Assembly: GCA_947627585.1 (NCBI GenBank)
Contig: CANQWP010000001.1
Span: 1 to 38,809 of the forward strand
Direction of reading: 5' to 3'
Length of the DNA: 38,809 bases
From: an uncultured Clostridia bacterium
GTDB taxonomy: Bacteria > Bacillota > Clostridia > Christensenellales > UBA1242
Shown here: positions 7,233 to 38,809 of the stretch, piece after piece
How positions within the stretch are numbered: the first letter of the stretch is position 1
How the letters are laid out: every line of letters starts with the position of its first letter
The notes under the pieces: model-generated
Databases searched by the model: none
Told to the model about the DNA's origin: nothing
Seen by the model: only the letters and a program-made list of their open reading frames with translations
Translations under genes and position numbers: made by a program

Positions 7233-7250
7233 TTTTTCTCCTTTAAAGTT

Positions 7251-15278: not shown

Positions 15279-15307
15279 TTGACAAAAGAAGGAAAACATG
15301 CTAAAAT
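15279..15307 (+). promoter_or_regulatory. consensus promoter of the Lys-rich membrane protein gene
   Basis: TTGACA(15279-15284), a 17-nt spacer, then TGC-TAAAAT(15302-15307). It is nearly identical in shape to the tRNA-Ala promoter. Confidence 0.7.
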
Positions 15308-15315
15308 GTCCTTGT

Positions 15316-19400: not shown

Positions 19401-21608
19401 ATCTTCGCCCTGTTCACGTTCAAGGCTTCCAAAAATTTCATCTCCGTCAACAAGGTTTGAGACAGAAAATGTCAGCGACGGATCTTTGTCTCCAAAAGTT
19501 TTGCTTTTTCGTTCGGCCTTCACGAAAGCGTCTCGTGGAACAATTGTGCAAATGGCACTTTCAAAACTTATGATATAGTTTGGATTTGAAAGGTTTTCTT
19601 GTTCAATCAAATGCTGACCAACATATTTGCTGTCAATCTTAAGTGAACCGGTCAAAACATCTCCTTCAAAAAGATCGCAGTCATATTCAAGCAAAATTTC
19701 TTCGCCGTATGTGAATGTGCATTCTTTCGCCTTGACAGTGATTGGTTTTGGATCGATGTTTCCAAAAATTGGCTGAACATATTCTTCCAAAACATAATTT
19801 TTGCTGTCGCTGCCATAAAGTTCTGCTTGCGTGATTTTGACATCAATTCCCTTGCCGGCATCTTTTGAGACAAACTCCCCTGAGAGAGAAACTTTGACAT
19901 CTTCGTTGTTGAAAATGTTTCTCAGTCCGGCATTTATTGTCGCTTCGCGCGTTGCATCATATTCCTTTTCTTCAACGGTGACATTCTCAAGACTGAGTTT
20001 TCTTGGTGTGATTTCAAACTGTGCGCTTGAGCTGTCAATAACAATGTTATAATTTGGATTTTTCTCTTCCAAATTTCCACTTGTGATGGCATATTTTCCA
20101 ATCTTTTCGCCTGCTTCTCTGCCAAGATTGCCCGAAAGTTGTTCTCCTTGAACAAGATTGTCGGCCTCATATTCAATCGACGAGTCAGCGTAGCCATATT
20201 CTTTTTTCGTGTCTTTTGCAACAACTTTTGCATCTCTTTTCAAAATTTCGCCATATGAATTTGGCAAATTCTGAGATTTGAGGGCATAAATTTCTGCATT
20301 TTTGCCTGTCAAAACAAGTTCCTCATATGATACATTTATCAATTTATGCTCCCCTGCATTTGGATCGCGATATGAAAGGGAAATTCCTTCCAACCCCAGC
20401 TGGTGACCTTCTTCAAGCCCGTCAAATTTCACAGATGCTGTGCTTTCATCAATGTCCACTGTGCCGTCATATACACGGCTTTGAACTTCAATGCCAGAAA
20501 TTGTTATGTTTTTTCTGAACTTGGCAAAAACGTATTTCCCGGCGCTTGTGACAAGCCTTCTGTTTTTTGAAACGTAACTTCCGTCAACATACCATCCCAA
20601 AAATTCAAAGTCTTGCTTTGGTGTCACGTTGAGGGTGATTGGTTTCCCAAAAAGATATGTGCCCGTTCCAAAAAAGTTTGCAGGATCAAAAAAGTCAGAA
20701 TCCACTTCCACGTCCACATAAATTTCTTCTGGATTTGCAATTGTGAATGTCACATAGTTTGTGGAATATATCTTTTGAGTGGAATAGGAGTTTTGATTGC
20801 AGAAAACTCGGAACGTGATTGGCTCCCCGCTTGGAGCATCTTGTTTGATGACAAAGTTGCTGCCAACGATGTTCACATATTCAGAGCCAGAAACAAACTC
20901 ATAGTGAATTTCGTGGTTGATTTTTGAGAAACTGATAAAGTTTCCATTTGAGCCCGATATTTTTGTGACTTCGTTATATGCGTTCACTTTGACAGTTTGC
21001 CCAGGAGCAACCTTTTGATTTTCACAATCAAGTGTGACGCTGTCAATAATGGTGTAAAGATGAATTGTCGGGACGTCAATGACAAATTCATTTTCTCCTC
21101 TTGGCGAAGATGTTTCAAAAGAGAATCTAATGTTTTGTTCAAAGTCTTCAATTTTAAGCAAATCCGTCTCAACATTTCCGCCGCTTGAGCTGACCTCTTT
21201 AAATTTGTCGCCAGAAGAAATTTTGATTGTCACTTTTGTGTTTTTTTCTGTTTGAATTGAAGCTGTTGCTTTTGCAAAAAGCAAGCCTTTCTCGATAAAC
21301 GGCTGCATGTCCGGTGTTGGACACAACTCGCTCCAACCCGAGCTTGTCCCGGATCCATCATCAACAATGGAATAATATTCTCCACCATTTTCTGTTGTTT
21401 TGGCATTCACAAAGGTGTCATTTTTGCTGTCATCTTTGAAAAAATGTTCTGGACTTGTGCCTGCAAGACCTGTGAGAACATATCTGTTTCCGGCCACACC
21501 ATCAATCGATGCTGCGCTTGCAATTTGGAAATTTGGCATAGGGAAAAACATGCAGGCAAAAACCAGCATAATCAAAACTATGAACATTTTGTTAAACAGT
21601 TTTTTCAT
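16470..21608 (-). CDS. giant surface protein with MBG (YGX-type) and YDG repeats and a C-terminal TM anchor (1712 aa)
   Basis: ATG at 21608 follows a GGGAGGGG RBS. The signal peptide ends ...IASA/AS. FEFLGWYVDGSYVS is a Listeria-Bacteroides-type repeat motif. By manual count there are ~11 units of K-x-YG-x-xDP...G-x-L-x-R-x-x-GE-x-VG-x-Y-x-I...NYNI....F-x-I-x-PR and ~4 YDGT-type units. The C-terminus is a TM (YAVIVSVFVISALCVFALAITVI) followed by KMKKRKK. There is no LPXTG. Confidence 0.85.
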   Translation of the reverse strand: MKKLFNKMFIVLIMLVFACMFFPMPNFQIASAASIDGVAGNRYVLTGLAGTSPEHFFKDDSKNDTFVNAKTTENGGEYYSIVDDGSGTSSGWSELCPTPDMQPFIEKGLLFAKATASIQTEKNTKVTIKISSGDKFKEVSSSGGNVETDLLKIEDFEQNIRFSFETSSPRGENEFVIDVPTIHLYTIIDSVTLDCENQKVAPGQTVKVNAYNEVTKISGSNGNFISFSKINHEIHYEFVSGSEYVNIVGSNFVIKQDAPSGEPITFRVFCNQNSYSTQKIYSTNYVTFTIANPEEIYVDVEVDSDFFDPANFFGTGTYLFGKPITLNVTPKQDFEFLGWYVDGSYVSKNRRLVTSAGKYVFAKFRKNITISGIEVQSRVYDGTVDIDESTASVKFDGLEEGHQLGLEGISLSYRDPNAGEHKLINVSYEELVLTGKNAEIYALKSQNLPNSYGEILKRDAKVVAKDTKKEYGYADSSIEYEADNLVQGEQLSGNLGREAGEKIGKYAITSGNLEEKNPNYNIVIDSSSAQFEITPRKLSLENVTVEEKEYDATREATINAGLRNIFNNEDVKVSLSGEFVSKDAGKGIDVKITQAELYGSDSKNYVLEEYVQPIFGNIDPKPITVKAKECTFTYGEEILLEYDCDLFEGDVLTGSLKIDSKYVGQHLIEQENLSNPNYIISFESAICTIVPRDAFVKAERKSKTFGDKDPSLTFSVSNLVDGDEIFGSLEREQGEDVRSYKILKGTLNNSNYNIVFTENVLEITPREITILVHFLDKEYDGTTNVEHEVEFFNNIKEAEFLLKINALLESKDCGKAKVSVEDYQISCEEMSNYCFKYQYFNSEIEISKRKVNIFVDTSSKTYGDQDPIFTFAANRVVEGESLDLEIARQEGENVGSYAYRLNETYAIKNPNYDINLVESSFEILPREISIFVENQTKYFGDEDPTIKFDIVDKLCFDDKVEEVIDGKIERQAGEAVGVYAYDVEHISTSANYVFKTSGDTNFIILKRPVVVTGKNSTKTYGEDDPVFEYSVENEVEGEKLSVHIIREYGEDVGEYRLLCGTTNDARYAIEFADGAFLTITPCEVSVKADKKVKIYGDEDPSLSVTITKGFLKNNDRLEDIAQGELSREEGENVGTYSIDRGDFSFGKNYVLTFESGSFEIIKRHITITAIESKKTYGDADPEFSFEVSAEGLVFGDKVEGKLSRKEGENVGFYAILQGDIHLSENYSFDFISKNFEIEKKIVEVVPITLSKQYGEEDVEIEYQLVGELVGQDVLEGGLFRDKDKIERESTGKYRIHSTLENPNYEIVFGEHYFTILPREITLKANSVEIVYGDTEPELSYQIVSGTLLDGDLIQGSLQRVKGNSVGAYDIISKLKINRNYNITYIKGEVTIRPLKLTIQSENYEKTYGQSDPSFDFEIVEGNLLEGDKLYGIITREAGEDVGKYNLVNSIYNSNYEITLLPAQLEILKKDVYLISGIYDKIYDGTTRAWLKNPYISGTIDEIYPLYDKNNSAEFESSQVGKNIPVHVHDISLSGEKKDNYNLILPEVLYGDITLGKIEKEDVSVSAKDPVLYDNYVLNYSKESLDGLKKIHNQRLLLKYRIWLENGSHEVSTNSLFTIKINLPKSIYDKNNIYIYKQLEDGTFELLESEKDANGQIIISALSLGEFYIAIDDEAWVDYAVIVSVFVISALCVFALAITVIKMKKRKKILKNY

Positions 21609-21626
21609 GTTTCCCCTCCCTTTGTC

Positions 21627-24600
21627 TTAAAATCTGCAAGGCCTTTTGATTGTTCTCAGTGAGCCGTCATCAACATATGATTGCCCAGGCAAAATAAATG
21701 GTTTTGCCGCCGAAATTGAAAGAATTGAGCATTCCACTGGGACCACAATCCCAAGATTCACCGCTCCAACAATATCCCAGTTTGAATATGCGCAATTTGG
21801 ATTGAGCTTTGATTTTTCAATTCTGCCATGCGATTTGTAATTAAGACCCGGAATGTCCGCCTTAAGTTTGAAAATTCCGCAGTTATAATAGGTTTTTCCA
21901 TTTTGTGTATAGGCATAATTCGTGCCCTGTCTCAAAACGATTTCTCTCACTTGTTTAAGGACTTCGTCCGAAACGAATGAAACTCCTGCATCGCGCAAAA
22001 CGGTTTCAAGGTCAACACCTTGTTGAATTTGTTCCAATGTGGACCAGTTATAGAATCTCACTTCACCTTCAAGTGTGACAACGCTGTCTTCTTCATTTTG
22101 GAATAAAACCAACTTGAAGAAAATCCCACAAAAGCCTGATGTAAAGATGCTGTCCTTGACTTTGATGTGGCAAACAACTTGTTCGCTTCTTTCAACTTTG
22201 ATGCCATACAAAAGACAGTTGCGGAAAATGCACCCTTCAATGTCCACGCTTGCGCTCAAAACTTGCATCGATGTGGCAGCATTTTCAAAGATTGAATTAT
22301 AAAGAAGAACGTTTGAGCAGTTTTGAACTGTCAATGTGTTTCCAGAATCCTTAAGCTCTGCGCCACTTGTGAACGAAACCCCTCTCAAAACCACATTGTC
22401 CAAAACGATGTTGTCGCGTTTTATCAAAAAGTGGATCCAAGAATTTCCAATTTGTGAGTGGTCAAGCATTTTTCCGTTTCCATAAATGTTGTAATTAATT
22501 TCCACAATGGCAAATTCTTTTTCGATTGCAATGTTGTTGTGCAGAACCATCGCTGCAAAACTATCTTTTCGTTGTGCGTTAAGTTTCGTCAACTCTTGAT
22601 TTGCAAGTTTAAATTGATCATATGTGTTGACATTGACGCCCTCAACCACAACAAATTCATAACTGTCGCCAACAACAACTGCCCCGTCATATGGGGATTT
22701 TTGTTGAACCGAAATCACAACCCTTCCTGTGCCGACAAATGTGACAACGCCGTTTTGGTCCACCGTTGCAATGCCCTCGTCGCTCGACTTCCATTCAAGA
22801 AGGTCTTTTGAAACTCCGTCTGGCCTCAATGCAACATTCATTGCAAAGGTTTTTACGATTGTGTTCTTTTCGTCAAAGAAACTGTTTCCAAAAACTCTGT
22901 ATCCTCCAAGTCCATCGTTGTCGCCCGAGTTGTCAAGTTCAAGTTTTATGTCGGTGATCTTGTCAAAAATGTTAAATTCTTTTGTGACAGAGATGTCTTT
23001 GCCCACAACTTTTGCAGTGACGTTCACTTTTCCGCTTGCTTTTCCAATCAAGCGATATCCCTCACCCATTTTGATGAGGTCGGCAAAAGCAGCTTCGTCT
23101 TTGCCTAAGCTCATTGTAAATTCAAAGTCCTCTGCATCAATCGGCACGCCAAAAATCATCAAATCCACGTGCTCGCCGGCATACATGTTTTCACGCGTTT
23201 GATTGAATTTGATGGCTTGAAGATCTTTTGTGTAAACAATTTTCACAACAACAAAAACTGAAGGGTTATCGGCGACGCTGACAACAATTTCGCATTCTCC
23301 AAATCGGCTGAATGTCACGTTTCCGGTTTGAGACACGGTTGCAACGCCTTCGTTTCGAGATTCAAAATGGAGCGAATTTTGATGAGAATCGCTTTCTCGA
23401 ACGTTGGCCAAAATTGTGTAATGAGGGTCAGAAACAAAGACTTCGCTGTCTCCATCAAGTTCAATTGCGGTCGCATTTCGAAGCACAATCAACGTCAAGT
23501 TCTCAAGCTTGAATCCGTTCGCATAAAGCGTGAATGAATATGTCCCGCCATTCAAAGCATAGATCATTCCGTTTTCAAAGTTTGCAACTGGCTTTTGCGA
23601 ATCGTTTCGAGATTCTGATGTGTTTGAAATTGAAAATTCAACATTTTCAATGTCGCTTGGAAGCGCTTTTTTGAGTTTAAACTCAAAGCTCTCTCCGGCG
23701 TTGAGTCTAATTGTGTTGTTTTGAATTTCTGATGTGTCAAGTTGAGCTTCAAAAAGTTCGTTCCCGACATAGAAGAAACTGTAGGTTTTTGATTTCTCCA
23801 AATTTGATGTATCTTTGCATTTGAAAGTGATGGAAACTCTTCCTTTTTGCAGGAACTTGATCGTGTTGCCCTCAATGCGCGCAATGTTAGGGGCGGAAAC
23901 TTCATATGCATAATCTTTGACTTTTGCGTCGTTTGGCTGATATACAATTTCAAATGTCAACTCTGTTCTGCTTGTGATGAACGTGCTTGAATTTTGATAT
24001 GTGTCAAGCTTTTGTCCAAATTTCACGTCAACAGAATCCAGTGGGCTGTAAACTGAAACTTTGCAATCGGCAAAGACCTCGTTTCCGTTGAAATCAAAAG
24101 CAAATGCCCTCACAATCGCTTCGCCGCTGCAAAGCGCCGTAATTTGACCGTCCGCCGACAGGTTTATCACCTGAGAACTTCCGTCATAAGCAGTTTGAGA
24201 AAGAATCTTAAACTGAACGGAATTTTCTTTTGCGTCAGTTGGATATTTGTCCGCAAACAATTTGAAAATGTCACCTTTTGTCAGCGAAAGTTCTTGCGAG
24301 TTAAGCTCAATCCTTCCCAAATAGCCCATTGTGCTTGTGACACGGACAACTTTTTCAATTCCGCTTCCATCAGTTGTTCTGACAAACACTGTCGCCGTTC
24401 CCGGTTTGATGAAATGGAGAATGTTTCCAGAAATTTGTGCGATGTCCGTGTTTTGAAGAATGAACTCCAAAATGTTGTTTGTCGCATTTTTTGGCACAGC
24501 AACAGCCTCAATTGTGTAGGTGTCGCTTGCCGTCAAAACATTCTCTTCAACTTGAATGTCAGAGACCTTGTTGACGCAAATGATTTCGACCTCTTTGACA

Positions 24601-27600
24601 ATTCCGCCGGAAAGTTCAACAAGAAGTTTAGTCTCCCCGCTGTCAACAGCGACGATTGTTCTTGTGTTGGAGTTGATTTCAATCACTTTCTTTCCTGTCG
24701 AGCTGACTTCGCGGAAGGAAATTTGTGTGTTCTTGACGTCAAATGGCAGCCATTTTGAAACACCAATTGTCACGCGTTCTCCGACGTTCATGACAAGGCG
24801 ATTTCCAACGTTGAGCTCCGCATCAAGAGCCGTTCCGCCCGTGTATCGAAGGCGCATAAATGTTGTGCAGTTTCCGTCAACCGATTTGATTTGAAGCAGC
24901 ACAGAGCCGGCCTTTGTGAAATAAACTGTCCTGTTGCTTATGTAAGCAACTCCGCCCGTTTCGCCTTCGGCGGCAACCGACTGTTCAATCGAAATCTTTA
25001 TGTCTTTGTTCTCAGAATAAACCGGATAAATTTCAAAATCAAGGTCAACAACGTCGCTTGCGACAACATATTCGTCATTGAAGAAGTCAAAGTTCCCGCT
25101 GAAAACAATGTTCTCAACAAGTTGTTTGACAACAATTTCAAATTCATAGACCCTTTCTGCCGTTCTTAAAGAAACCTTTGCTTCTCCCGCAAATGTGGCG
25201 CGCAAATATTTTTCCGCTTCCACTTGAACAACGTTTCCGCCGTCCACAATTGGGGAATTGCTTGAAATTTCCAAGGTGAAATTGTCAGAAATGTCAAATG
25301 TCAAAAGGTCGCCCTTTGAAGCTTCAACTTTTCTTTGCTCCGGAAGGACGTGGACCATGTTCTTTTCAATCTTTTCAACAAAGAATTCAAGTCTCACGTT
25401 TTCGTCCGCTTCGGAAATTGCCGTGATGTGCGCAATTCCGTTTTGTTTGAATGTCAAAGTCGAGCCTTCAACAAAAGCAATGTCGGATTCTTTGACAACA
25501 TATCTCACATTTTTGTTTGTGGCATCATATGGCAAAACTTCGCTTGTCAAATTGACAACGTTTGTCGTCACTTGTGTGTCCGCTTGTCTTACAGAAATGC
25601 TCTCCGGCTTTCTTTCAACAGAAATGGCAAAATTCAATCTTATTGAATTGGAAACATACACAACAAGTGTGGCCGTTCCGCCTGCAACGCCTTTGACAAC
25701 GTTTCCGTCAATTTCCAAAACTTTTCCAAGTGGGTCGGCAGTCCTTTGATTTGTCACTTGAATTGAAATCGGCGGCAAAACTTCATATTGCGGAATGGTT
25801 TTTGAGATTTCAATTTCAAAACTCTCGCCGGCTTCAATCTTTTCCGGAATGTTGCCTTTTTGTCCATCAAAAAGCGCTTGCACCTCTGCGTAAACAGGGT
25901 TTAAGCCGGCATAATAAATCTCAACAGAATTTGACACCTGCCCAACTGTCGCGGTGAGCGTGACAAAGCCAACCTGATTGAAAATCAATGTGTTTTTGCC
26001 CGCCAAAATTGCAATGTTTTTGTCACTGATTGACCAAACTATCTCTGTTTCTGTGGCATCGTCCGGAACAACTTTTCCAGAAAAAGTCACTTCGTTTTGC
26101 GACGTGATATATTGATCTTTATAAACTTCCAAATCGGTGAAAATTTGAATATCGCTCGGATTTCGAAGGACAGTGACGTCACAAAAATCTTCCACCATGC
26201 TGCCGTCAAAAAGTTCAAACTGTGCCTTGACTTTTGCCGTTCCGCCTCCCAAAGCATGAATTCTGCCATCTTCCAGGATCTCAATCACGTTTGAGCCTTC
26301 GACGATTGGATTGCTCTGTTCAATTGTGACAAACAAGTTTCTTATTGTTGCGTTTGTCGGCAAAACTTCATAATTTAAAGATGCCGTGTCGCCATATGTG
26401 AGTGTAAGTTTTTTGTCAAGCAAGTTGAATTTCCCCGCCCCTCCGGCAGTGTAGGTCACCTTCACGTCTTTTGAAACTTCGCTCAAATCGCCGTTTGCAT
26501 AAATTGTCACAGTGACAGTGCAAGGCTCGTCACATTTGAAAGAGACAACCCCGCTTGGCGAAACTTCTGCTTTTGACAAGTCTTCTTCGTGGAGGTGATA
26601 GAAATATTCAACGTTGAGCCCATCCGATTGTGGATTGAGTCGCGTTTCTTTTTCTGCGACCATGACGTCGTCAATGAAAATTTCGGTCGCTGGACACTCA
26701 ACGTTCACAAGAACTGTTTGTTCAAGAATTTGCCCGTCGCTTTTTTCCACCTTGACTCTCACAACGGTGTTTCCGGCTTTGAGCGCATGAATATAGCCGT
26801 TTGAGTCGACATATGCAACGCTCTCTTCGTCCGACGAGAACTCTACGTGCGTATTGTAAAGATGTTCTGGCAAAGTTGAATATTCAATATAGACAGGCTC
26901 AGAGTCAACTTGCATTGTCACGGAGTGTGTCTCCAAGACCAAGTCATATGCATAGCCGTCAGTGAAAATGTAGTGCACTTTCTGTGAAAAGTTGCCGTCC
27001 TCGGTTGTCAAAGTCACATTCACTTCCCCGGCTTTCAAAAACGTGATTGTTCCGTCATTGCTGACTTGCGCCACTTCTGGATTATCCACTTCAAACAAAA
27101 CACTTTTGTTTGATGCGTCAGACGGTTCAATCAAAAATTCAACTTTCTCCGTTTTTGACGATGTGACAATTTCGGACTTTTCTACAACAATTCCTTTGAC
27201 AGGATTGACCACTGACAAATCTACAGAGTTTTTGAACCCGCCGTCTTCCGATGTTGCCATGATTGTCACTTTTCCTTCCTGAAGGCCATGAACCAAACCA
27301 TTTGTGTCAACAGTTGCAATCTGTTCGTTGTTTGAGGTGAAAGTCACCTCTTTGTTGATTGCCTCATTTGGCGAAATTTCTACATTAAGTTGCAGCGTCC
27401 CGCCAATGTGGACATAGTTTTGTGGGGCACTGAGCTTTGTGTCCCAAACATAGAAAGAGCATTGGGCTTGTCTGTTTCCATCTTTTGTTGTTGCAATGAT
27501 GTATCCCGTGCCAATTCCGACAAATTCAACATGCCCATCCATGTCAACAGTTGCAGCCTGCTCATTGCTGCTGCTCCAAAGCACCTCTTTGTTTGTGGCC

Positions 27601-27788
27601 ATTTCAGGAAAAATGTAATATTCCATATCCATGCTTTCGCCAACTTTTGCTGAAGTTGCCGCCGGCGTCAAATTTATGTACTCAACAGAAATAAAAACAT
27701 CTCCCACAGCGACACTCGCCGTGAGCTTTACGATCAAAATCACCAAAATCGGAATTGCAACCATCAAAAACATCATCAGTTTCTTCAT
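21627..27788 (-). CDS. giant N-anchored protein: ~19 Ig-like (Big_2-type) repeats plus a C-terminal parallel beta-helix-like domain (2053 aa)
   Basis: I trim the track ORF (27884) to ATG 27788, which lies 1 nt after the permease TGA and follows a GAGGTG RBS. The N-terminal TM is MKKLMMFLMVAIPILVILIV. The repeated motif ...ATVD-x-xG-x-V-x-x-x-x-xG-x-x-x-I-x-AT... is typical of Big_2, and I count about 19 repeats by hand. The last ~450 aa (...NIYGNGKMLD...NIVLDNVVLRGVSF...NCSNVLLYNSIFENA...IEGCIFRNC...) have the periodicity of right-handed beta-helix (PbH1) repeats. Confidence 0.85.
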   Translation of the reverse strand: MKKLMMFLMVAIPILVILIVKLTASVAVGDVFISVEYINLTPAATSAKVGESMDMEYYIFPEMATNKEVLWSSSNEQAATVDMDGHVEFVGIGTGYIIATTKDGNRQAQCSFYVWDTKLSAPQNYVHIGGTLQLNVEISPNEAINKEVTFTSNNEQIATVDTNGLVHGLQEGKVTIMATSEDGGFKNSVDLSVVNPVKGIVVEKSEIVTSSKTEKVEFLIEPSDASNKSVLFEVDNPEVAQVSNDGTITFLKAGEVNVTLTTEDGNFSQKVHYIFTDGYAYDLVLETHSVTMQVDSEPVYIEYSTLPEHLYNTHVEFSSDEESVAYVDSNGYIHALKAGNTVVRVKVEKSDGQILEQTVLVNVECPATEIFIDDVMVAEKETRLNPQSDGLNVEYFYHLHEEDLSKAEVSPSGVVSFKCDEPCTVTVTIYANGDLSEVSKDVKVTYTAGGAGKFNLLDKKLTLTYGDTASLNYEVLPTNATIRNLFVTIEQSNPIVEGSNVIEILEDGRIHALGGGTAKVKAQFELFDGSMVEDFCDVTVLRNPSDIQIFTDLEVYKDQYITSQNEVTFSGKVVPDDATETEIVWSISDKNIAILAGKNTLIFNQVGFVTLTATVGQVSNSVEIYYAGLNPVYAEVQALFDGQKGNIPEKIEAGESFEIEISKTIPQYEVLPPISIQVTNQRTADPLGKVLEIDGNVVKGVAGGTATLVVYVSNSIRLNFAISVERKPESISVRQADTQVTTNVVNLTSEVLPYDATNKNVRYVVKESDIAFVEGSTLTFKQNGIAHITAISEADENVRLEFFVEKIEKNMVHVLPEQRKVEASKGDLLTFDISDNFTLEISSNSPIVDGGNVVQVEAEKYLRATFAGEAKVSLRTAERVYEFEIVVKQLVENIVFSGNFDFFNDEYVVASDVVDLDFEIYPVYSENKDIKISIEQSVAAEGETGGVAYISNRTVYFTKAGSVLLQIKSVDGNCTTFMRLRYTGGTALDAELNVGNRLVMNVGERVTIGVSKWLPFDVKNTQISFREVSSTGKKVIEINSNTRTIVAVDSGETKLLVELSGGIVKEVEIICVNKVSDIQVEENVLTASDTYTIEAVAVPKNATNNILEFILQNTDIAQISGNILHFIKPGTATVFVRTTDGSGIEKVVRVTSTMGYLGRIELNSQELSLTKGDIFKLFADKYPTDAKENSVQFKILSQTAYDGSSQVINLSADGQITALCSGEAIVRAFAFDFNGNEVFADCKVSVYSPLDSVDVKFGQKLDTYQNSSTFITSRTELTFEIVYQPNDAKVKDYAYEVSAPNIARIEGNTIKFLQKGRVSITFKCKDTSNLEKSKTYSFFYVGNELFEAQLDTSEIQNNTIRLNAGESFEFKLKKALPSDIENVEFSISNTSESRNDSQKPVANFENGMIYALNGGTYSFTLYANGFKLENLTLIVLRNATAIELDGDSEVFVSDPHYTILANVRESDSHQNSLHFESRNEGVATVSQTGNVTFSRFGECEIVVSVADNPSVFVVVKIVYTKDLQAIKFNQTRENMYAGEHVDLMIFGVPIDAEDFEFTMSLGKDEAAFADLIKMGEGYRLIGKASGKVNVTAKVVGKDISVTKEFNIFDKITDIKLELDNSGDNDGLGGYRVFGNSFFDEKNTIVKTFAMNVALRPDGVSKDLLEWKSSDEGIATVDQNGVVTFVGTGRVVISVQQKSPYDGAVVVGDSYEFVVVEGVNVNTYDQFKLANQELTKLNAQRKDSFAAMVLHNNIAIEKEFAIVEINYNIYGNGKMLDHSQIGNSWIHFLIKRDNIVLDNVVLRGVSFTSGAELKDSGNTLTVQNCSNVLLYNSIFENAATSMQVLSASVDIEGCIFRNCLLYGIKVERSEQVVCHIKVKDSIFTSGFCGIFFKLVLFQNEEDSVVTLEGEVRFYNWSTLEQIQQGVDLETVLRDAGVSFVSDEVLKQVREIVLRQGTNYAYTQNGKTYYNCGIFKLKADIPGLNYKSHGRIEKSKLNPNCAYSNWDIVGAVNLGIVVPVECSILSISAAKPFILPGQSYVDDGSLRTIKRPCRF

Positions 27789-27789
27789 G

Positions 27790-29103
27790 TCACACCTCGA
27801 TTCCGCTGTAGCGCTTTTCCAAACGGAAGAACAGCTTGAATGTTTCAATTGATGCAAACGGCACTCCAAAAGCAAACAAAACAATATACATTGCCGGGAG
27901 GCTTACGAAAAATGAGAGAACAATTCCGCCAATGCCCATCAAGAACGAAATTCCAAAACCAATTCCAATTGATGTGGAAACGTTTTTGTTGTTTGCGGAG
28001 ACCTCTCCATTTTCAAGATATTGAAATTGCGGACGTTTTATGTCCATAACAATGGAGTGGCAAATGTTTCCGGTGATGACAAACGAAAGAGAAATGGCAA
28101 TCAGTGTTGCGGCGACATAGTCAATGAATTGTGCAAACGCCAAAACGAAGCACGAAACAAAAATTGCCGGAACTGAAATGAGAAGATAGATCACAAACTT
28201 GACAAAAATTTGTTTGGTGAAGCTCACCGGAATGATTTTTGTCAAAAAGAAATTTCCCCCTTCTCTTGTCACCGAAGTGGCAGAAAAAGATGTCCCCATG
28301 CTCAAAAACATGATCAAAACCAAAACAACAATGCCCGGCAAAACGCCCTTGCCCAAAATTGGCGTGCCGACGCTTGAAGCAATTTCACTTGAAAAATAGA
28401 CCATCAGCGGCGTTGTGAACACAATTGTCAAATATTGAAAAGCATAGTTCGTTGAACGGAAGATGTTTTTAAATTCTTTTGACATAAGTGCCGCTGTGTT
28501 GCTTTGATGCACCGTTTTTGTTTTTTTCTTGAAGATTTTTTCGTTTTTGCTTGAAATGATCAGACTGAAATAGAATTTTTCTGCAAAAATGTAAATAAAT
28601 GCGCACAAAAAGCCGATTATTGCCAAATTTATCACTGCGCTTTTCCAAAAATTGTAAAGAAGCAAAGAATTCTTGAAAAGAATTGGAAGATATAAATATG
28701 AAGAAAACTGTTTTATTGCAAAAATTGTTGAACTGTCAAACACGTTTGCAAAGTTTCCGCTTTCCAAAATTCCAAGAATAAATTTCAAGGCATATATGTA
28801 AAAAGTGAAGCCGGCAATGAGAACGAGCGTATAGAAAAGCAACAAAATGAGGAATTTGTTTTTGAACGCTTTGATGATCCACATCACCGGAACCGACAAA
28901 ATGATGGAAAGCAAAAACGGGATCACCGGCAAAAAGAAAACGTTTGGAAGAAGCATCAAGAAAAAGCCCACCCCTTGGGCCGTCTTTATGCCAAACAAAA
29001 TGAATGTCGGCAAAGAGATGATGAGCGAAAACACAAATTGTTTCAAATATAAATACAAAAATTTTGCCGAAAACACATCAAACCCGCCGACCGGGAGTTT
29101 CAA
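27790..29103 (-). CDS. polytopic ABC permease, C-terminal 437-aa part of a split gene
   Basis: It starts with TTG 29103-29101, which overlaps the TGA of the 95-aa ORF (TTGA). It is multi-TM throughout and collinear with residues ~100-533 of the intact paralogue 36127-37728. Both end in ...IEV-stop. Confidence 0.8.
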   Translation of the reverse strand: MKLPVGGFDVFSAKFLYLYLKQFVFSLIISLPTFILFGIKTAQGVGFFLMLLPNVFFLPVIPFLLSIILSVPVMWIIKAFKNKFLILLLFYTLVLIAGFTFYIYALKFILGILESGNFANVFDSSTIFAIKQFSSYLYLPILFKNSLLLYNFWKSAVINLAIIGFLCAFIYIFAEKFYFSLIISSKNEKIFKKKTKTVHQSNTAALMSKEFKNIFRSTNYAFQYLTIVFTTPLMVYFSSEIASSVGTPILGKGVLPGIVVLVLIMFLSMGTSFSATSVTREGGNFFLTKIIPVSFTKQIFVKFVIYLLISVPAIFVSCFVLAFAQFIDYVAATLIAISLSFVITGNICHSIVMDIKRPQFQYLENGEVSANNKNVSTSIGIGFGISFLMGIGGIVLSFFVSLPAMYIVLFAFGVPFASIETFKLFFRLEKRYSGIEV

Positions 29104-29410: not shown

Positions 29411-30127
29411 TCAGTCTTTTGTCAAATCTAGGAAATATTTTTCAAGAGATTTTCCGGTTTTTGCAAACTTCTTCAAATCAATCACTTCAAGAAGTTGCCC
29501 TTCGCGCATGATTCCAACGCGATCGCAAAGTTTTTCGACCAAGTCGATGTTGTGCGAGGAAAAGAAAACTGTGTTTCCAAGCCTTCGGTGCTCCACCATA
29601 TAGTCCTTGATTTCCGCCATGCTTTGCGGGTCAAGACCCATGAGCGGCTCGTCAAGCACCCAAAACTTTGGATTATGAATGAGCGCCGCAATGATGCAAA
29701 TTTTTTGTTTCATTCCGTGAGAATATGAGCGAATTTGCTTGTCCAAAAACTTTGTCATGGAAAAAAGCTTTGCAAATGTGTCAATTCTTTTTGCCAAAGT
29801 TTCCTTTTCAACGCCATAGACGTTTCCCATAAATGTGGCATATTCTCGCCCGGTCAAATTGTCATACACTGCGTGGTCGTCCGGAACGTAGCCGATGTTC
29901 ATTTTTGCACCGATTGGGTCTTTTTTGATATCGTGACCACAAATGCAAATTTCGCCGCTTTCAAAAGGAATAATTCCGGTCAAACATTTGATTGTCGTGC
30001 TTTTTCCTGCGCCATTTTTGCCCAAAAAGCCAAAAATTTCGCCATCATTAAGCGTCAAATTCAAGTTTTTGACCGAATATTTGTCACTGCTTTTATATTT
30101 TTTGCTAAGATTTTTTATCGTCAACAT
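29411..30127 (-). CDS. ABC transporter ATP-binding protein (238 aa), module 2
   Basis: I trim the track ORF to ATG 30127 (MLTIKNLSKKY, the same N-terminus as the paralogue MLKVKNLSKKY). Walker A is GKNGAGKST, the signature variant is YSHGMKQK and Walker B is FWVLDEP. Confidence 0.9.
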   Translation of the reverse strand: MLTIKNLSKKYKSSDKYSVKNLNLTLNDGEIFGFLGKNGAGKSTTIKCLTGIIPFESGEICICGHDIKKDPIGAKMNIGYVPDDHAVYDNLTGREYATFMGNVYGVEKETLAKRIDTFAKLFSMTKFLDKQIRSYSHGMKQKICIIAALIHNPKFWVLDEPLMGLDPQSMAEIKDYMVEHRRLGNTVFFSSHNIDLVEKLCDRVGIMREGQLLEVIDLKKFAKTGKSLEKYFLDLTKD

Positions 30128-30163
30128 AACATTTCCTTTGAAAACCACATGCGGCCCACTCAT

Positions 30164-32885: not shown

Positions 32886-32909
32886 AAAGAAAAAACGCAC
32901 TTGCGTGCA
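32886..32909 (-). terminator. weak terminator candidate after the 1058-aa gene
   Basis: The minus strand reads TGCAC-GCAA-GTGCG followed by TTTTTTCTTTT. The stem is only 4-5 bp. Confidence 0.35.
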
Positions 32910-32947
32910 TTTTAACAAATTTTCTTTTGGTGCAAGATTTTTTAGTT

Positions 32948-35900
32948 TTAGGATTCTTCTTTCTTTGGAACAACAGCTGTTGAAAGCGCTTTGCTTGCAC
33001 TCGAAGCCGGATTCAACACATCTGCGAGAGTTGAACCGTCAGACCATGTTTTGTTCCATTTTTCATCTTCTTCGTTAAGAGAATCCTTTAGTGCCCGGAT
33101 GTGATCCGATTCAATTCCTTTCAAAGACGGGTCTCGATATGCTTGTTGCATATGCCACAAAATATGTGTTTCGTTCTTTACATCTGTTGTCTTATATTCG
33201 CAAAGAAGACGGATATAGCGTTTGTCGGTGAAAACGTTGTCTTTGTCAGCTGCGCAGGTCAACCTTATTTGGCTTGCTTCAGCAATTGTCGCGTTGTCCA
33301 AACGCACGCCATCTTCATCCAAAATTTCATATGTCCAAGCGTAAAAAGAGCCGATTATGGTGTCCATAAGATGCATGTTTTTGATTTTTGCGCCATTGTC
33401 CAAAACATTTTTTTCGGAAGCGAGTGCATATTCATTGCCATCCCAAACAAACACTTTGTCGCCCAAATCAGAAACCGCAAACACCAACACATTGACATAG
33501 AAGTTGTCAATGTCTTTGGTGCTGACTGCAGCAGTTTGATTTAGCCCATACCATTCAAAATATGGGCCAATGTTTGGCACAGCCAAGCCGTACACCATTT
33601 CAACCCATGAATTGAAATTGTTGAGCGTTGTTTTGTTGGCATAATTAAGAATGTCGGCTGAGCCTTTGAAATAAATTTTCACATCTTGTCCGCCATTTTT
33701 GGTGTCATCAACCAAAATGCCGGTGCTGCATTCAACCATGACGATATTTTCAACATAAAGTGATTGTTCTGCTTTGTAAAGTTGTATGCCCGCCTTGGAA
33801 GCTCCGAAAAATACGGTGTTTTTCGTGTAGAACACAGCGTCCTCAGGCCTAAATTTATAATAATAAGACAAATTGCAATAGTAAGCATAGGTCATTTTGA
33901 GAACCATTTTTTGATTCTGAGCGCTGATCGTCTCGACAGGGTTTGAGCATTTGATGACGGCGTTATAAGCCCTGTTGACTGCGATGCCCTCGCTTTCGCT
34001 GGAGCCGGTCATTGAAGCATTTTTTGCCTCAAAATTGACCTGATGGCCATTGCCATATATTGTTGTTTTGCCCAAGCCATCAACCTTGGTCAAGAAAAGC
34101 CCATTTTCTGTTGCGTAGTCAAATTTTTCGTCACTTTCGCCAAGTTCGCCAACGCCATAGAAATCGGTCTGAAGAACAACTTTGTCGTTGCCATAATATC
34201 CATCGGCATCAAAGACATTCACAAGCGATTCGTCGTCAAGCACATTAAAGTTGAAGTGACGATTTGTTCCGCCAACAGCACCATCGCCCGCTTCAACTCT
34301 CAAAAATGAAAATGCGTTCGGGCTTGCTGCAAACTCTCTGCCACTGTCGTCATCTGCAATTTCATTAGGTTGTGTCCAATTTTGTTCTTCTGCAAAATTT
34401 CCAAAATAATTGTTTTGAACGTCACTTTCCGAAAGCCCAGCAAATGCCCCAAAATATATGCGTGCATAGCCCGGCTCACTAAACACATCCACCCAAATAA
34501 TTTTTTGTGGATTTTTGCCGTCTTCTCCAACAACAATGGCGCCAGTTTGATCTTTCAAAACATAGCCTTCTTCGTCTTTTTCAATTGTGTAGGACAAATT
34601 GTTGTATGTCACATCATATCCAAGTTGATTTGTGATGATTTGAGTTGTGTCGTTGCCAACAATTCTTGTTAAATTCCAAGAAATCTCTTCTGGATTCACT
34701 TTTTTCTGATCAACCAAACTTGAAAGCGCGTTGAAAGGAATTTTGAAATAGTCCACAAGCTCTCCGTCATAGGAACTTTGTTTTGCATAGACGGTCACTT
34801 GTTGATAGCCTTTATAAATATCTTCTGTGTTTCCATTGTCAAAGCTTTCTGTTTCGTTTGTAAATTCAACTTGTGAAATGGCAATGCGCTTCAATTTTAA
34901 AGCCATTTCTTTTTCAGCAAATTTCAATGAAATGTCTTGTTGGAACTCGCTCAATCCTGGAAATGAGATGATAATTTGATTGTTCAAACTGTCATATGAA
35001 GCTTGATAGTTTTCCACTTCTTCGATCTTAAGCATTTCTGCAAAATTTTCGTCACTTCCAAATCCACCAATAATGTCTTCGTCGAGATTCACTTGAAGAG
35101 TGAAGCTGTCCTGAACATTTTTGGCAAGCATAATCAAAATTTCGTCTTCTTCGTTTGCTTTTTCAATGCTGTCCAAAGTTATTGTTTTTGCACCATCTTG
35201 TGCGTCAAGCGTTGCAAAAACATCCATATCAAAGCTGTCAAGATCTGCTTTTTCAAGAGAAAAACTTATTGTTTCTCCTCCACTCTTGAAAGAAATGTCG
35301 TGAACTTTGGCTATGTCAACTGTCAGTGTGCCATTTTGGATTTGTTGCCAATCACCAGCATTGTTTGTTTGATATGTAATGGTTTTTTGTCCATTTGAGA
35401 CTTCAAAAGTCAAACTGTCCAAAAAAGTCTTATATTCTTTTGCATTTTGAATTTCTTTGTCGGCACAAAAAACCTTGAAGCCATCCACCTTTCTTGCGTG
35501 GCAATTTATTGTTACTGTTTTTGAAATATCTTCGTTTCCCAAAGCGGTCACAGTGATTTTTGCTTGTCCAACGCCCACAGCTGTCACAGTTCCGTTTGCG
35601 TTCACTTTCAAAATGTCTGGTCTGTCACTTTCCCACTTTTGCGCTTTGTTTAAGGCGTCCACAGGAAATACATTGACTGAAAGTTGTGCTCTTTCCCCAA
35701 CATACATATCTGTTGGGAATTCGTTTAGTTCAAAATCATAAATCGTTGTGCCTGTGACAACAATTTTTCTCTTTGCAAGCGCAGCGACGTTTTCTTTGCT
35801 CTGGACTGTGATATAAGTTTCTCCATAAAAAACGGGTGTCACAACTCCTTCTTCATCGACTGTTGCCACGTTTTCATTGCTGCTCTTGAAAACTAAATCG

Positions 35901-36124
35901 CGATTTTTTGCATTTGTTGGAAAAACATTGATTTCATCCATGATATTGCGCTTTGGAGGATTTTCTGGATTGTCCATAACAAACACAACTGCATCTTTTT
36001 TGGAAAATTCAACATTTTCGACATAGATGTGTGTCACAAGGCTCAAAATTGCGCCATTAACCAAAAGAATTGCAAGCAAAAGCAATGGCAAGATGATGAT
36101 TGTTGATGCCATAAGTTTTCTCAT
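32948..36124 (-). CDS. N-anchored surface protein with two Big_2 repeats and a C-terminal YGNG-containing (beta-helix-like) region (1058 aa), module 1
   Basis: ATG at 36124 lies 2 nt after the permease TAA and follows a GAGGTG RBS. The N-terminal TM is STIIILPLLLLAILLVNGAIL. The Big_2 motifs are ...NVATVDEEGVVTPVFYGETYITV and ...ILKVNANGTVTAVGVGQAKITVTA. TIYGNGHQVNF is comparable to NIYGNGKMLD in the 2053-aa paralogue. Confidence 0.8.
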   Translation of the reverse strand: MRKLMASTIIILPLLLLAILLVNGAILSLVTHIYVENVEFSKKDAVVFVMDNPENPPKRNIMDEINVFPTNAKNRDLVFKSSNENVATVDEEGVVTPVFYGETYITVQSKENVAALAKRKIVVTGTTIYDFELNEFPTDMYVGERAQLSVNVFPVDALNKAQKWESDRPDILKVNANGTVTAVGVGQAKITVTALGNEDISKTVTINCHARKVDGFKVFCADKEIQNAKEYKTFLDSLTFEVSNGQKTITYQTNNAGDWQQIQNGTLTVDIAKVHDISFKSGGETISFSLEKADLDSFDMDVFATLDAQDGAKTITLDSIEKANEEDEILIMLAKNVQDSFTLQVNLDEDIIGGFGSDENFAEMLKIEEVENYQASYDSLNNQIIISFPGLSEFQQDISLKFAEKEMALKLKRIAISQVEFTNETESFDNGNTEDIYKGYQQVTVYAKQSSYDGELVDYFKIPFNALSSLVDQKKVNPEEISWNLTRIVGNDTTQIITNQLGYDVTYNNLSYTIEKDEEGYVLKDQTGAIVVGEDGKNPQKIIWVDVFSEPGYARIYFGAFAGLSESDVQNNYFGNFAEEQNWTQPNEIADDDSGREFAASPNAFSFLRVEAGDGAVGGTNRHFNFNVLDDESLVNVFDADGYYGNDKVVLQTDFYGVGELGESDEKFDYATENGLFLTKVDGLGKTTIYGNGHQVNFEAKNASMTGSSESEGIAVNRAYNAVIKCSNPVETISAQNQKMVLKMTYAYYCNLSYYYKFRPEDAVFYTKNTVFFGASKAGIQLYKAEQSLYVENIVMVECSTGILVDDTKNGGQDVKIYFKGSADILNYANKTTLNNFNSWVEMVYGLAVPNIGPYFEWYGLNQTAAVSTKDIDNFYVNVLVFAVSDLGDKVFVWDGNEYALASEKNVLDNGAKIKNMHLMDTIIGSFYAWTYEILDEDGVRLDNATIAEASQIRLTCAADKDNVFTDKRYIRLLCEYKTTDVKNETHILWHMQQAYRDPSLKGIESDHIRALKDSLNEEDEKWNKTWSDGSTLADVLNPASSASKALSTAVVPKKEES

Positions 36125-36126
36125 TC

Positions 36127-37728
36127 TTACACCTCAATCTTCCTATATTTTTTGTTTACTGTGAAATAGAAAATTAAAAAGTTAACAAGTGCATAGACAA
36201 AAGATAGTCCAATCATAAGCAAATATGCGGTGAGAGCCCCGCCTTTGAAAAATTTAGGAAAAATAATGCTTATCGTGCCAAAAATTGCGGAAATAACAAG
36301 TCCAAGCAAAAGCATATAGGTGACATTGATTTCTTCTGATTCGCCGTTTGCCTTTGGTTTAATGTTTGGATTTATGAGGTTAATGTTTGCACCGTTGAAA
36401 ACGAGCCCAAAGACGAACAATATTTCACATACAAGAATAACTATAATTTCGATTGCGTTTACAAATTGTAAAGCTGCCAAAACAATTATGCTGATCAGCA
36501 GCGCCCCAAGACTGACAGCTATGTTTATTAGTCCTTTCAAAAGAAGTTGTTTGCGATATGAGACAGGAATGAGTTTTGTGATATAAAAATTTTTGCCTTC
36601 GATGCTGAGCACAATTGCTGAAAACGAACTTATCATTGCCATAAACACAGAAACGACAAGCATTGACACCCCAAAGTTTATGCCTTGACCAATTTGTGCT
36701 TGACCGACCATGCCCACAAGTTTGTCGCAGAAAAACACCATTACAGGGGTTGCGATTGCCACGCCGAGATAAAAATATGAATAGGATTTTGTATGTAAAA
36801 TTTCCAAGAAAGTGTGTCTCAAGATTGCTTTTCCGCTTCCAAAATTGTCCAGTTTGCTGTTTCTTTTGATTCCGCCATCTCCGCCGTCCAATTGTTTTGT
36901 GCGGATGCTTTGATAAACAAACTTTGCAAGCACAATTCCCACGCCCGCAAGCACAAATGTCGCGCCGATCATTGCACCAAAGCCAATCCAAAATTTTTCA
37001 AAGAAAATGATGTTTCCAAGATAATATGCAGGATTATATGGAGTGTCCAAAGATGTGAGCAGTGTTTCCCAAATGCCAAGCGTGCCTTCCTCCCAATTTT
37101 TGTGGATAAAGAAATTTGCAAGTGCTGTCAAAACAAAATAATAAAGTGTAAACAATCCCGCCAAAAAGATGATAAACATAATAATTTGAATTACATTATA
37201 TCTTTTGAGAAGTGAACTTAAATACATTATTGGAATGGCAAGGAAAATTGAAATTGCAAAAGGGATCATTGGCAAAAAAATCACTCCCAAAACAATTCCG
37301 CAAATATATGTAAATGTTATGCAATTCAAAGCCCAGCCAAAAACAAGCATAATTGGAATAAGCAAAATTGCGGAATAAATCATCAAATCAATATAATTCA
37401 AAATCAAACTGCTGACAAAAATTTTGAAAGAGCTAAGTGGAAATCGTGCAGAAATGTGCAGATCCGCCGGGCGATACAACCTTTTGATTTGCATGCTTGT
37501 TGCAAAGACCGTCAACCCAAGCATAAGAATTGTCAAAAACAACACCGACAATCTTTTTATTGAAACGGTCAAAGTTGACTTAAGCACATATGAAAGCCCC
37601 CAAACCAATGCCAAACAAATTCCAATCGCAAACAGCATGGCAATTGAAGTCATGATTGCATTTGTTTTGCTATTGTTTTTGTTAAACCCCCACCTGAGTT
37701 TAAGTTGCAAACGGATGTAATCAAGCAT
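36127..37728 (-). CDS. polytopic ABC permease ('putative ABC exporter'-like, 533 aa), module 1
   Basis: I trim the track ORF (37839) to ATG 37728, which follows a GAGGTGGA RBS and overlaps the ATPase stop by 8 nt. It is multi-TM throughout. ...RLYRPADLHISARFPLSSFKIFVSS resembles the D-x-x-L-x-x-x-P-(V/L)-S motif region of this permease class. Confidence 0.8.
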   Translation of the reverse strand: MLDYIRLQLKLRWGFNKNNSKTNAIMTSIAMLFAIGICLALVWGLSYVLKSTLTVSIKRLSVLFLTILMLGLTVFATSMQIKRLYRPADLHISARFPLSSFKIFVSSLILNYIDLMIYSAILLIPIMLVFGWALNCITFTYICGIVLGVIFLPMIPFAISIFLAIPIMYLSSLLKRYNVIQIIMFIIFLAGLFTLYYFVLTALANFFIHKNWEEGTLGIWETLLTSLDTPYNPAYYLGNIIFFEKFWIGFGAMIGATFVLAGVGIVLAKFVYQSIRTKQLDGGDGGIKRNSKLDNFGSGKAILRHTFLEILHTKSYSYFYLGVAIATPVMVFFCDKLVGMVGQAQIGQGINFGVSMLVVSVFMAMISSFSAIVLSIEGKNFYITKLIPVSYRKQLLLKGLINIAVSLGALLISIIVLAALQFVNAIEIIVILVCEILFVFGLVFNGANINLINPNIKPKANGESEEINVTYMLLLGLVISAIFGTISIIFPKFFKGGALTAYLLMIGLSFVYALVNFLIFYFTVNKKYRKIEV

Positions 37729-38440
37729 TATCCACCTCGTTGACTTCCATAAACATTTTTTCAAGGTCAACATCTTTGCTTGTGCGCAGGTCAACTCTTC
37801 TGACAATTTGACCTTTCTTGACAAAAATAACCATATCACAAGCTTTTTTTACTGTTTCCAGACTGTGTGACGAAAACAAAACTGCGTGCTTGTCATCAGC
37901 ATATTCTTTTATGTATTTTACCAAAAGGTTCATCGTTTGTGGATCAAGCCCCACCATTGGCTCGTCCAAAACCCAAAGTGCGGGTCTGTGAACAAGTGCG
38001 CCCAAAATGCAGATTTTTTGCTTCATGCCGTGTGAATAGCTTGATATCTGAGTGTCCAGCGCATAAGCAATGTCAAACTTCTTTGCAAGAAAGTCTGTTG
38101 CATAAGCCTTTTGCTCTTTTGTTGCACCATAAAGGCTGCCCATATAATTTATGTACTCACGACCAGTCAACTTGTCATAGACCGAGTGGTCATCCGGAAC
38201 ATATCCAATGTTCTTCTTTGCTTGTTCGCTTTGTGTGACAATATCAAAGCCGTTCACCTTGATTTCTCCCTCTTGGAATGGCAAAACACCAATTATGCTT
38301 TTGATGATTGTGGATTTTCCAGCGCCGTTGCTTCCAACAAGTCCAACAACTTGTCCTGCTGAAACTTTAAAGCTGACATTTTTTGCTGAAAACTGATCAT
38401 TTGCCGGATATTTTTTTGAAAGATTTTTTACTTTAAGCAT
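37721..38440 (-). CDS. ABC transporter ATP-binding protein (239 aa), module 1
   Basis: ATG at 38440 follows an AAAGGAGA RBS. Walker A is GSNGAGKST, the signature variant is YSHGMKQK and Walker B is LWVLDEP. It is a close paralogue of 29411-30127. Confidence 0.9.
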   Translation of the reverse strand: MLKVKNLSKKYPANDQFSAKNVSFKVSAGQVVGLVGSNGAGKSTIIKSIIGVLPFQEGEIKVNGFDIVTQSEQAKKNIGYVPDDHSVYDKLTGREYINYMGSLYGATKEQKAYATDFLAKKFDIAYALDTQISSYSHGMKQKICILGALVHRPALWVLDEPMVGLDPQTMNLLVKYIKEYADDKHAVLFSSHSLETVKKACDMVIFVKKGQIVRRVDLRTSKDVDLEKMFMEVNEVDNA

Positions 38441-38477: not shown

Positions 38478-38509
38478 ATTTTAGTATAACGGGGGGGGGG
38501 ATTTGTCAA
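38478..38509 (-). promoter_or_regulatory. promoter of ABC/Big_2 module 1 with a C10 tract in the spacer
   Basis: The minus strand reads TTGACA(38509-38504)-AAT-CCCCCCCCCC-GTTATAC-TAAAAT(38483-38478), 37 nt before the ATG at 38440. That is the same -10-to-ATG distance and the same TTCAAAGGA leader as the paralogous promoter at 30164-30192. The spacer to TAAAAT is 20 nt. The alternative -10, TATACT (38488-38483), gives a 15-nt spacer. Confidence 0.6.
38491..38500. repeat. G10/C10 homopolymer
   Basis: There are ten consecutive G on the plus strand in an otherwise AT-rich intergenic region. Confidence 0.95.
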
Positions 38510-38536: not shown

Positions 38537-38734
38537 TCGACAATTTTTATTCATTTTGTGCCGCCGATTCTTATCATCTGTGACCGATGCGAATTTATTT
38601 GCGACTTTTCAAACATGGGGATGTGTATCTCCGCTTGAAACTGATGATGAAACAGAAAAATAGAAAAACAGCCATTTCTGACTGTTAATCGCCCATAATC
38701 CCCGTAAAAAAACGGGTTCAACTATGTTCTTTTT

Positions 38735-38809
38735 TGGTGCTCCCGTCAGGACTCGAACCCGAACAAATGGTTCCGAAGACCATTGTGCTATCCATTACAC
38801 CACGAGAGC
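38735..38809 (-). tRNA. tRNA-Arg (anticodon UCG), CCA encoded; its 5' end coincides with the window edge
   Basis: The reverse complement folds manually as: acceptor GCTCTCG/CGGGAGC; D arm GTGT-AATGGATA-GCAC; anticodon arm ATGGT-CTTCGGA-ACCAT (positions 34-36 are TCG); 4-nt variable loop; T arm TCGGG-TTCGAGT-CCTGA; 3' ACCA. Confidence 0.9.

Follow-up and report, generated by a model that had tools for sequence, protein, structure and literature searches.

A poly-C tract in the promoter spacer of an ABC transporter/Big_2 operon as a candidate phase-variation switch in an uncultured gut Clostridia bacterium

The stretch of DNA analyzed here (38,809 nt, contig CANQWP010000001.1 of an uncultured Clostridia bacterium; hereafter the window) carries on its minus strand a three-gene operon encoding an ATP-binding cassette (ABC) ATPase, a presumed permease, and a large protein with bacterial immunoglobulin (Ig)-like Big_2 domains. 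A run of ten cytosines (C10) occupies the spacer between the −35 and −10 hexamers of the predicted promoter of this operon. It is probably a hypermutable homopolymer within a sigma-A (sigma-70-type) promoter, which would act as a switch of the kind found at porA, opc, and fetA. A slipped-strand spacer switch had been proposed in the first-pass annotation, from the letters of the window and its open reading frames (ORFs), and this proposal gains support from the conservation of a pure tract of varying length in four lineages.

Positions 38509-38478 of the minus strand read exactly TTGACA-AAT-C10-GTTATAC-TAAAAT, with TAAAAT 37 nt before the ATG, as had been annotated. In sequence, the tract is thus placed between the two hexamers, with TTGACA 3 nt before and TAAAAT 7 nt after it. 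For a tract of n cytosines the spacer to TAAAAT amounts to n+10 nt (20 nt at C10, 17 nt at C7), and the spacer to an overlapping −10-like hexamer, TATACT, amounts to n+5 nt (15 nt at C10, 17 nt at C12). The values of 20 and 15 nt counted previously were reproduced by direct reading. The C10 is a perfect homopolymer of slippable length (about 7 or more), and pure runs of C7 to C10 are present in the tract-bearing orthologues described below. Within all 38,809 bases of the window it is the sole run of at least six G or C, the number of runs of at least 10 expected being 0.006-0.008. The intergenic DNA around it has a G+C content of 32% (tract excluded), so the earlier remark that a 10-nt G/C run is conspicuous in this AT-rich DNA is well founded.

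Orthologous operons were fetched through their ATPases. The nearest relatives were metagenome-assembled genomes (MAGs) and metagenome contigs from animal guts, and the source of the window is a member of the uncultured Clostridia/Bacillota. An exact-protein look-up of the window ATPase found none on record, i.e. no second assembly of the window's strain. A pure C-tract was found in four lineages, the window (C10, spacer of 20 nt) and three others. These are (i) P0002 (contigs L121 and L122; ATPase 89% identical to that of the window), with TTGACA-ATT-C9-GCTACAT-TAAAAT and a spacer of 19 nt; (ii) P0003 (L135; ATPase 86% identical), with TTGACT-T-C8-GTTGTAA-TACAAT and a spacer of 16 nt; and (iii) P0016 (ATPase 81% identical), in which L132 reads TTGACA-AAT-C7-ATGCACT-TATAAT with a spacer of 17 nt, and the same flanks enclose C9 in L134 (19 nt) and C10 in L133 (20 nt). 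The layout −35, N3, Cn, N7, −10 recurs in three of the four lineages, L135 having N1 before the tract. In every tract-bearing orthologue a −10-like hexamer (TAAAAT, TACAAT, or TATAAT) stands exactly 7 nt after the tract. The promoter regions align at a mean column identity of 59%, and few columns are invariant, those of the C-run and of the key −10 positions being among them. As in the window, the tract is the only G/C run of at least 6 in each orthologous locus fetched.

The three P0016 contigs originate from three samples and encode an identical ATPase, and their tracts of C7, C9, and C10 constitute a length polymorphism among close strains with the same flanks. L132 and L134 are 99.6% identical, with 5 single-nucleotide polymorphisms (SNPs) in 1292 nt; the tract is the only indel between them, while five A7 runs in their overlap all agree. 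Invariance of the tract among strains had been named beforehand as an outcome that would speak against a switch; in the related loci its length varied from C7 to C10. Furthermore, C7 had been predicted as the optimal length from the window alone, and the naturally occurring C7 allele of L132 yields a perfect TTGACA-17-TATAAT promoter. The spacers observed (16, 17, 19, and 20 nt) cross the functional range of 16-18 nt.

As a control for homopolymer calls, 13 same-species contigs of a 79%-identity lineage (P0022, P0026), which has no tract and an unchanged promoter, were compared. Runs of T7, G5, and C5 were constant, a T8 run read 8 in ten contigs and 9 in one, and an A8/A9 difference tracked SNP-defined lineages. 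Near-identical control contigs (0-4 SNPs) from different samples had identical A/T run lengths. Homopolymer calls in these assemblies are therefore reproducible, and general noise does not explain the 7/9/10 spread at the C-tract. L121 and L122, which were produced by different pipelines, were likewise identical over 4100 nt including C9. A one-base error in the window's count of 10 is possible, and would leave the existence and position of the tract unaffected.

A second, paralogous ABC/Big_2 module in the window (module 2, the operon above being module 1) is preceded by the promoter TTGACA-17-TATAAT (30192-30164, minus; 12/12 match), with TG just upstream of the −10. Because this promoter is perfect, the canonical 17-nt spacing can be taken to apply in this organism. 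Its −10 sits 36 nt before the ATG at 30127 (MLTIKNLSKKY), which is almost certainly the real start of the module-2 ATPase, and the leaders of both modules have TTTCAAAGGA in common. The spacer length, the distance to the ATG, and the shared leader all agree with the earlier description. The homology then claimed between the two promoters stands in part: the modules are paralogous, but homology of the promoter DNA is undemonstrable beyond the hexamers and the ribosome-binding region. The two ATPases are 49% identical (E = 1e-87), the permeases (36127-37728 in module 1 and 27790-29103, minus, in module 2) are 27% identical (E = 3e-39), and the Big_2 proteins show relatedness in the N-terminal anchor and in the Ig-like domains.

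In the proposed mechanism, slipped-strand mispairing during replication would add or remove cytosines and change n. Tracts of C6-C8 would give a functional spacer of 16-18 nt to TAAAAT; at C9-C10 the spacer would grow to 19-20 nt, the hexamers would be misaligned on the helix, and binding of RNA polymerase would be weakened. A population could in this manner turn expression of the ATPase, the permease, and the Big_2 protein on, down, or off, heritably and reversibly. We infer that the operon uses the promoter formed by these two hexamers, that its expression varies with the length of the spacer, and that switching occurs often and in both directions. The copy in the window (C10, 20 nt) would then be in a low or OFF state. 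A low-expression copy had also been suggested from the window, and the layout of the orthologues, which favors TAAAAT as the −10, is in line with it. TAAAAT is favored over TATACT as the conserved −10 because the N7 layout recurs in orthologues lacking TATACT. With TAAAAT as the −10, the leader of 37 nt also agrees with the 36 nt found at the paralogous module-2 promoter. As the main −10, TATACT was rejected, being absent from the orthologues, whereas a −10 at the position of TAAAAT is conserved. In this strain only, TATACT could open a second ON range, C11-C13, and C9-C10 would then fall in a trough between the two.

Several orthologous operons are devoid of a tract. Those of L123-L131 (P0007, P0011) have a gene for an 80-aa Xre-type HTH_26 protein directly upstream, together with a TG-extended TATAAT. 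With this arrangement, the same module may be under deterministic instead of stochastic control. L150 (P0004) has TTGACA-CCTCGCGCGTGCGCGTG-TATAAT at the position of the tract, ~40-70 nt upstream of the ATG at 634. This fixed 17-nt spacer is GC-rich and free of repeats, and the promoter may be a locked-ON derivative. The first letters of the Logan contig L151 (P0006) are CC, followed directly by GTTC-TATAAT, 38 nt before the ATG. An apparent break where the tract would be expected is compatible with a tract that is heterogeneous or difficult to assemble, and proves nothing. In the tract-bearing L135, a perfect 11-bp inverted repeat (ATACAATTGTC...GACAATTGTAT, ~234-260) extends over the −10 box and the start of the leader (z = −2.49 when folded as RNA). 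This repeat could be an operator, and control by tract and by repressor may coexist.

A number of observations weigh against a switch. Four of the six distinct assemblies have spacers of 19-20 nt, which fits a mostly-OFF gene, but also a −35-independent or long-spacer-tolerant promoter. The length variation is seen from one strain or sample to another, and several orthologous operons function with no tract at all. Runs of C9-C10 are unstable by nature, and length variation alone is no proof of an adaptive switch. Finally, the Logan runs are of unstated sequencing platform. The prevalence of 19-20 nt over 17-nt spacers and the many orthologues without a tract would also be accommodated if the tract were an unstable but neutral, or merely structural, GC-rich spacer whose length drifts, with the operon using another promoter or tolerating the spacer length. 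The spacer of L150 points the same way, in that GC-richness itself might matter, as does a weak promoter-like site upstream of the tract in the window (Table 1). We nevertheless regard a neutral spacer as unlikely. G/C runs are otherwise absent from this DNA, yet a pure run has been kept in four lineages with diverged flanks, an indication that selection acts on the repeat as such. The −10 has stayed exactly 7 nt from the tract, and a C7 allele with optimal spacing occurs naturally. The orthologues do not share the upstream promoter-like site, and no other convincing conserved promoter was found in them. Moreover, a TG-extended −10, which could make the −35 dispensable, occurs in some tractless orthologous operons but in none of the tract-bearing promoters.

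A role of the tract apart from spacing, either as an element of the 5′ untranslated region pairing with the ribosome-binding site or as a binding site for a poly-C/poly-G regulator, appears very improbable. The upstream promoter-like match would place the tract within the mRNA, and the minimum-energy fold of the window pairs the C-run with a GGGG after the −10 box; in L132 and L121 its partner is the GGGG or GGG in the ribosome-binding site. However, these folds are no better than those of shuffled sequence (z = −0.95 for the window, +0.50 and +0.53 for the others), and the pairing partner differs among orthologues. The −35 and −10 flanking the tract are conserved, whereas the weak upstream match at 38543-38514, considered as an alternative promoter, is not. 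An Rfam search of the leader and intergenic region identified only a tRNA and no riboswitch or leader family, and with the non-significant folds this led us to reject a known cis-regulatory RNA.

Least probable of all is an artefact, in which homopolymer errors made in sequencing or assembly would account for tract length and for the differences between contigs. Several platforms are prone to errors in G/C homopolymers of 9-10, the platforms of the Logan runs are unstated, and assemblers have trouble at the point where L151 begins. Yet all independent assemblies of the four lineages have the tract, its lengths of 7 to 10 spread more widely than the usual miscall of one base, and the indel comparison and homopolymer controls above reject artefact as the source of its existence and variability. 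An inverton was likewise rejected, as reading of the intergenic region revealed no inverted repeats flanking the promoter and no recombinase was among the Pfam-screened ORFs of the window.

The product of the switch would be of envelope type, an anchored Big_2 protein whose gene is predicted to share a transcript with those of an ABC ATPase and a polytopic permease (Table 1). The best NCBIfam match of the ATPase was the drrA subfamily, below its curated cut-off. The permease and ATPase genes overlap by 8 nt, start to end, and both this overlap and the length of 533 aa match the orthologues. Searches of Pfam, NCBIfam, and PDB sequences gave nothing above threshold for the module-1 permease and the C-terminal region of the Big_2 protein. 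Neither module's permease matched Pfam at E ≤ 0.001, and relaxed Pfam and NCBIfam searches returned nothing significant for that of module 1. The permeases seem to form an ABC-permease family not yet described, whose members are always paired with giant Big_2 proteins. The translation of the 1058-aa Big_2 protein has a hydrophobic N-terminus, i.e. a predicted membrane anchor or signal sequence. Across the window and L121, L123, L126, L130, and L132, Big_2 proteins measure, in ascending order, 1058, 1101, 1373, 1377, 1388, and 1417 aa, while ATPase and permease lengths are constant in the same operons. Such a size range fits a fast-evolving exposed protein. An anchored Ig-like product of rapidly varying size is the usual cargo of a contingency locus, which supports a switch. 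Upstream of the operon, the terminator-like hairpin after the tRNA-Arg gene should insulate the promoter from read-through, and the operon therefore appears dependent on the tract-bearing promoter.

Table 1. Features of the tract-bearing promoter, its operon, and related elements in the window
Feature	Position	Strand	Basis
−35 hexamer TTGACA	38509-38504	minus	direct sequence reading
AAT between −35 and tract	38503-38501	minus	direct reading
C10 homopolymer (G10 on + strand), proposed slipped-strand variable element in promoter spacer	38500-38491	minus	direct reading
GTTATAC between tract and −10	38490-38484	minus	direct reading
Probable −10 hexamer TAAAAT	38483-38478	minus	conserved position in orthologues
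Alternative overlapping −10-like hexamer TATACT	38488-38483	minus	direct reading
37-nt leader with ribosome-binding site AAAGGAG (38451-38445)	38477-38441	minus	direct reading
ATG of ABC ATPase	38440-38438	minus	direct reading
Weak promoter-like match TTGTCG-18-TAAAAT (9/12)	38543-38514	minus	consensus scan
ABC transporter ATP-binding protein, 239 aa, DrrA/ABC-2-like, first gene	37721-38440	minus	Pfam ABC_tran E = 3.4e-31
Polytopic membrane protein, 533 aa, presumed permease partner	36127-37728	minus	strongly hydrophobic translation
Big_2 (bacterial Ig-like) protein, 1058 aa, last gene	32948-36124	minus	Pfam Big_2 E = 7e-16
Terminator-like hairpin and T-run just after Big_2 stop, likely operon end	32892-32913	minus	consensus scan only
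tRNA-Arg gene upstream of operon	38735-38809		Rfam
Terminator-like hairpin after tRNA-Arg	38667-38686	minus	consensus scan
Module-2 ATPase ORF	29411-30163	minus	ORF-finder start 30163 = ATG directly after TATAAT

The contig is dense in surface proteins. The module-2 region (16470-27884, minus) encodes two giant proteins of 2085 aa and 1712 aa. The former contains Big_2 and has a sub-threshold match, with no significant stretch, to the N-terminal beta domain of hyaluronate lyase; the latter contains 10 MBG and 3 YDG domains. A perfect tandem repeat of 3 copies of 15 nt (CTCAGAAAAACAAGC) was noted at 16365-16409, close to the 3′ end of ORF 15298-16434 on the + strand; its units keep the reading frame, and their number could vary.

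Comparable spacers were also encountered outside the orthologous operons. A genome scan with the 17-mer AAATTTACTTGACAAAT was very unspecific, yielding 120 mostly unrelated loci (844 kb fetched) among which BLAST detected no orthologue of the window operon. In the unrelated gut-Clostridia MAG loci L102 (minus, ~3811-3819), L069 (+ 6903-6911), and L036 (minus, ~7154-7162), C9 or G9 lies inside a TTGACA...TATAAT/TATACT spacer, which is 15 nt as assembled, and the genes after these promoters encode small membrane proteins of 144, about 135, and 169 aa, respectively. The 844 kb of incidental loci contain nine G/C runs of at least 8, three of which lie within 20 nt after the seed −35, versus about 0.02 expected (P about 1e-6). 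A metagenome scan with a 21-nt degenerate pattern gave one match, the non-orthologous L149 (minus; tract at 7246 of the reverse complement), which reads TTGACA-AAT-C10-TATGATG-GATAAT and has the N3-Cn-N7 layout of the window. Judged from translations alone, the genes downstream look like the envelope-glycopolymer type and resemble those for a UbiA-type prenyltransferase, a HAD-like protein, a small multidrug-type membrane protein, and an epimerase. The rabbit-gut Bacilli MAG locus L097 (+ 925-933) reads TTGTCA-ACCCA-G9-AGG-TATATC (17 nt). A scan of viral contigs gave three matches, only one of them promoter-like, the IMG/VR contig L157 (minus; promoter at 3474 of the reverse complement) with TTGACA-AAT-C9-GTATTC-TATATT (18 nt).

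Possibly, although we would not presume it, G/C homopolymers in promoter spacers mark a class of contingency promoters that is widespread among uncultured gut Clostridia and related Bacillota and has not been described before, and orthologous operons may alternate between tract and Xre/HTH_26 or fixed-spacer control. Such a class would govern small membrane proteins, envelope-glycopolymer genes, and ABC/Big_2 surface modules. The evidence for it suggests a lead and is not a result. The locus in the window constitutes a sequence-level case, with natural allelic variation, for spacer-homopolymer control of an ABC/Ig-like module in uncultured gut Clostridia. If this control operates, tract lengths in metagenome reads could report the surface-antigen state of unculturable gut bacteria, consensus sequences of MAGs would hide expression-relevant heterogeneity, and uncharacterized ABC/permease/Big_2 modules would be marked as host- or phage-exposed and under fluctuating selection.

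The switch mechanism is already well known, and the host group is under-studied. Repeat-tract phase variation has been documented mainly in Gram-negative pathogens and mycoplasmas, and work on gut commensals has focused on invertible promoters and epigenetic switches. Our literature searches found no description of the spacer-homopolymer arrangement in gut Clostridia. In the promoter-spacer systems of Neisseria, expression is graded or ON/OFF. The closest likeness is to N. meningitidis porA (poly-G) and opc (poly-C) and to N. gonorrhoeae fetA (poly-C), all of which have a G/C homopolymer in the spacer of a surface-gene promoter, with tract lengths (about 7-14) in the same range as here. The unstable homopolymers between the −10 and −35 of porA, fetA, and opc change the distance between the hexamers with their length, and are thought in this way to alter sigma-factor binding (PMC2791445). 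Unlike in Neisseria, (i) the host here is an uncultured Gram-positive-type gut Clostridia and not a Gram-negative mucosal pathogen; (ii) the cargo is a predicted three-gene ABC ATPase/permease/Big_2 operon and not a single outer-membrane protein; and (iii) the overlapping TATACT of this strain might give a second ON range.

In the low-G+C, Firmicutes-related lineage of Mycoplasma hyorhinis, the vlp lipoprotein genes have a poly-A tract in the −35/−10 spacer. The tract here is poly-C, and vlp is a multigene lipoprotein family with combinatorial switching, whereas in the window a single tract is found on one of two paralogous modules, the other having a fixed consensus promoter. At fim2 and fim3 of Bordetella pertussis, the distance between promoter elements of genes for a surface structure is set by poly-C within the promoter region. 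The Bordetella tract spaces an activator (BvgA) site from the −10, whereas here TTGACA adjoins the tract and no activator site is evident. The invertons of gut commensals and cwpV of Clostridioides difficile lead to the same outcome as that proposed here, a heritable and reversible ON/OFF state of surface structures, but invertons recombine site-specifically between inverted repeats, a mechanism entirely different from slippage at a promoter-spacer tract.

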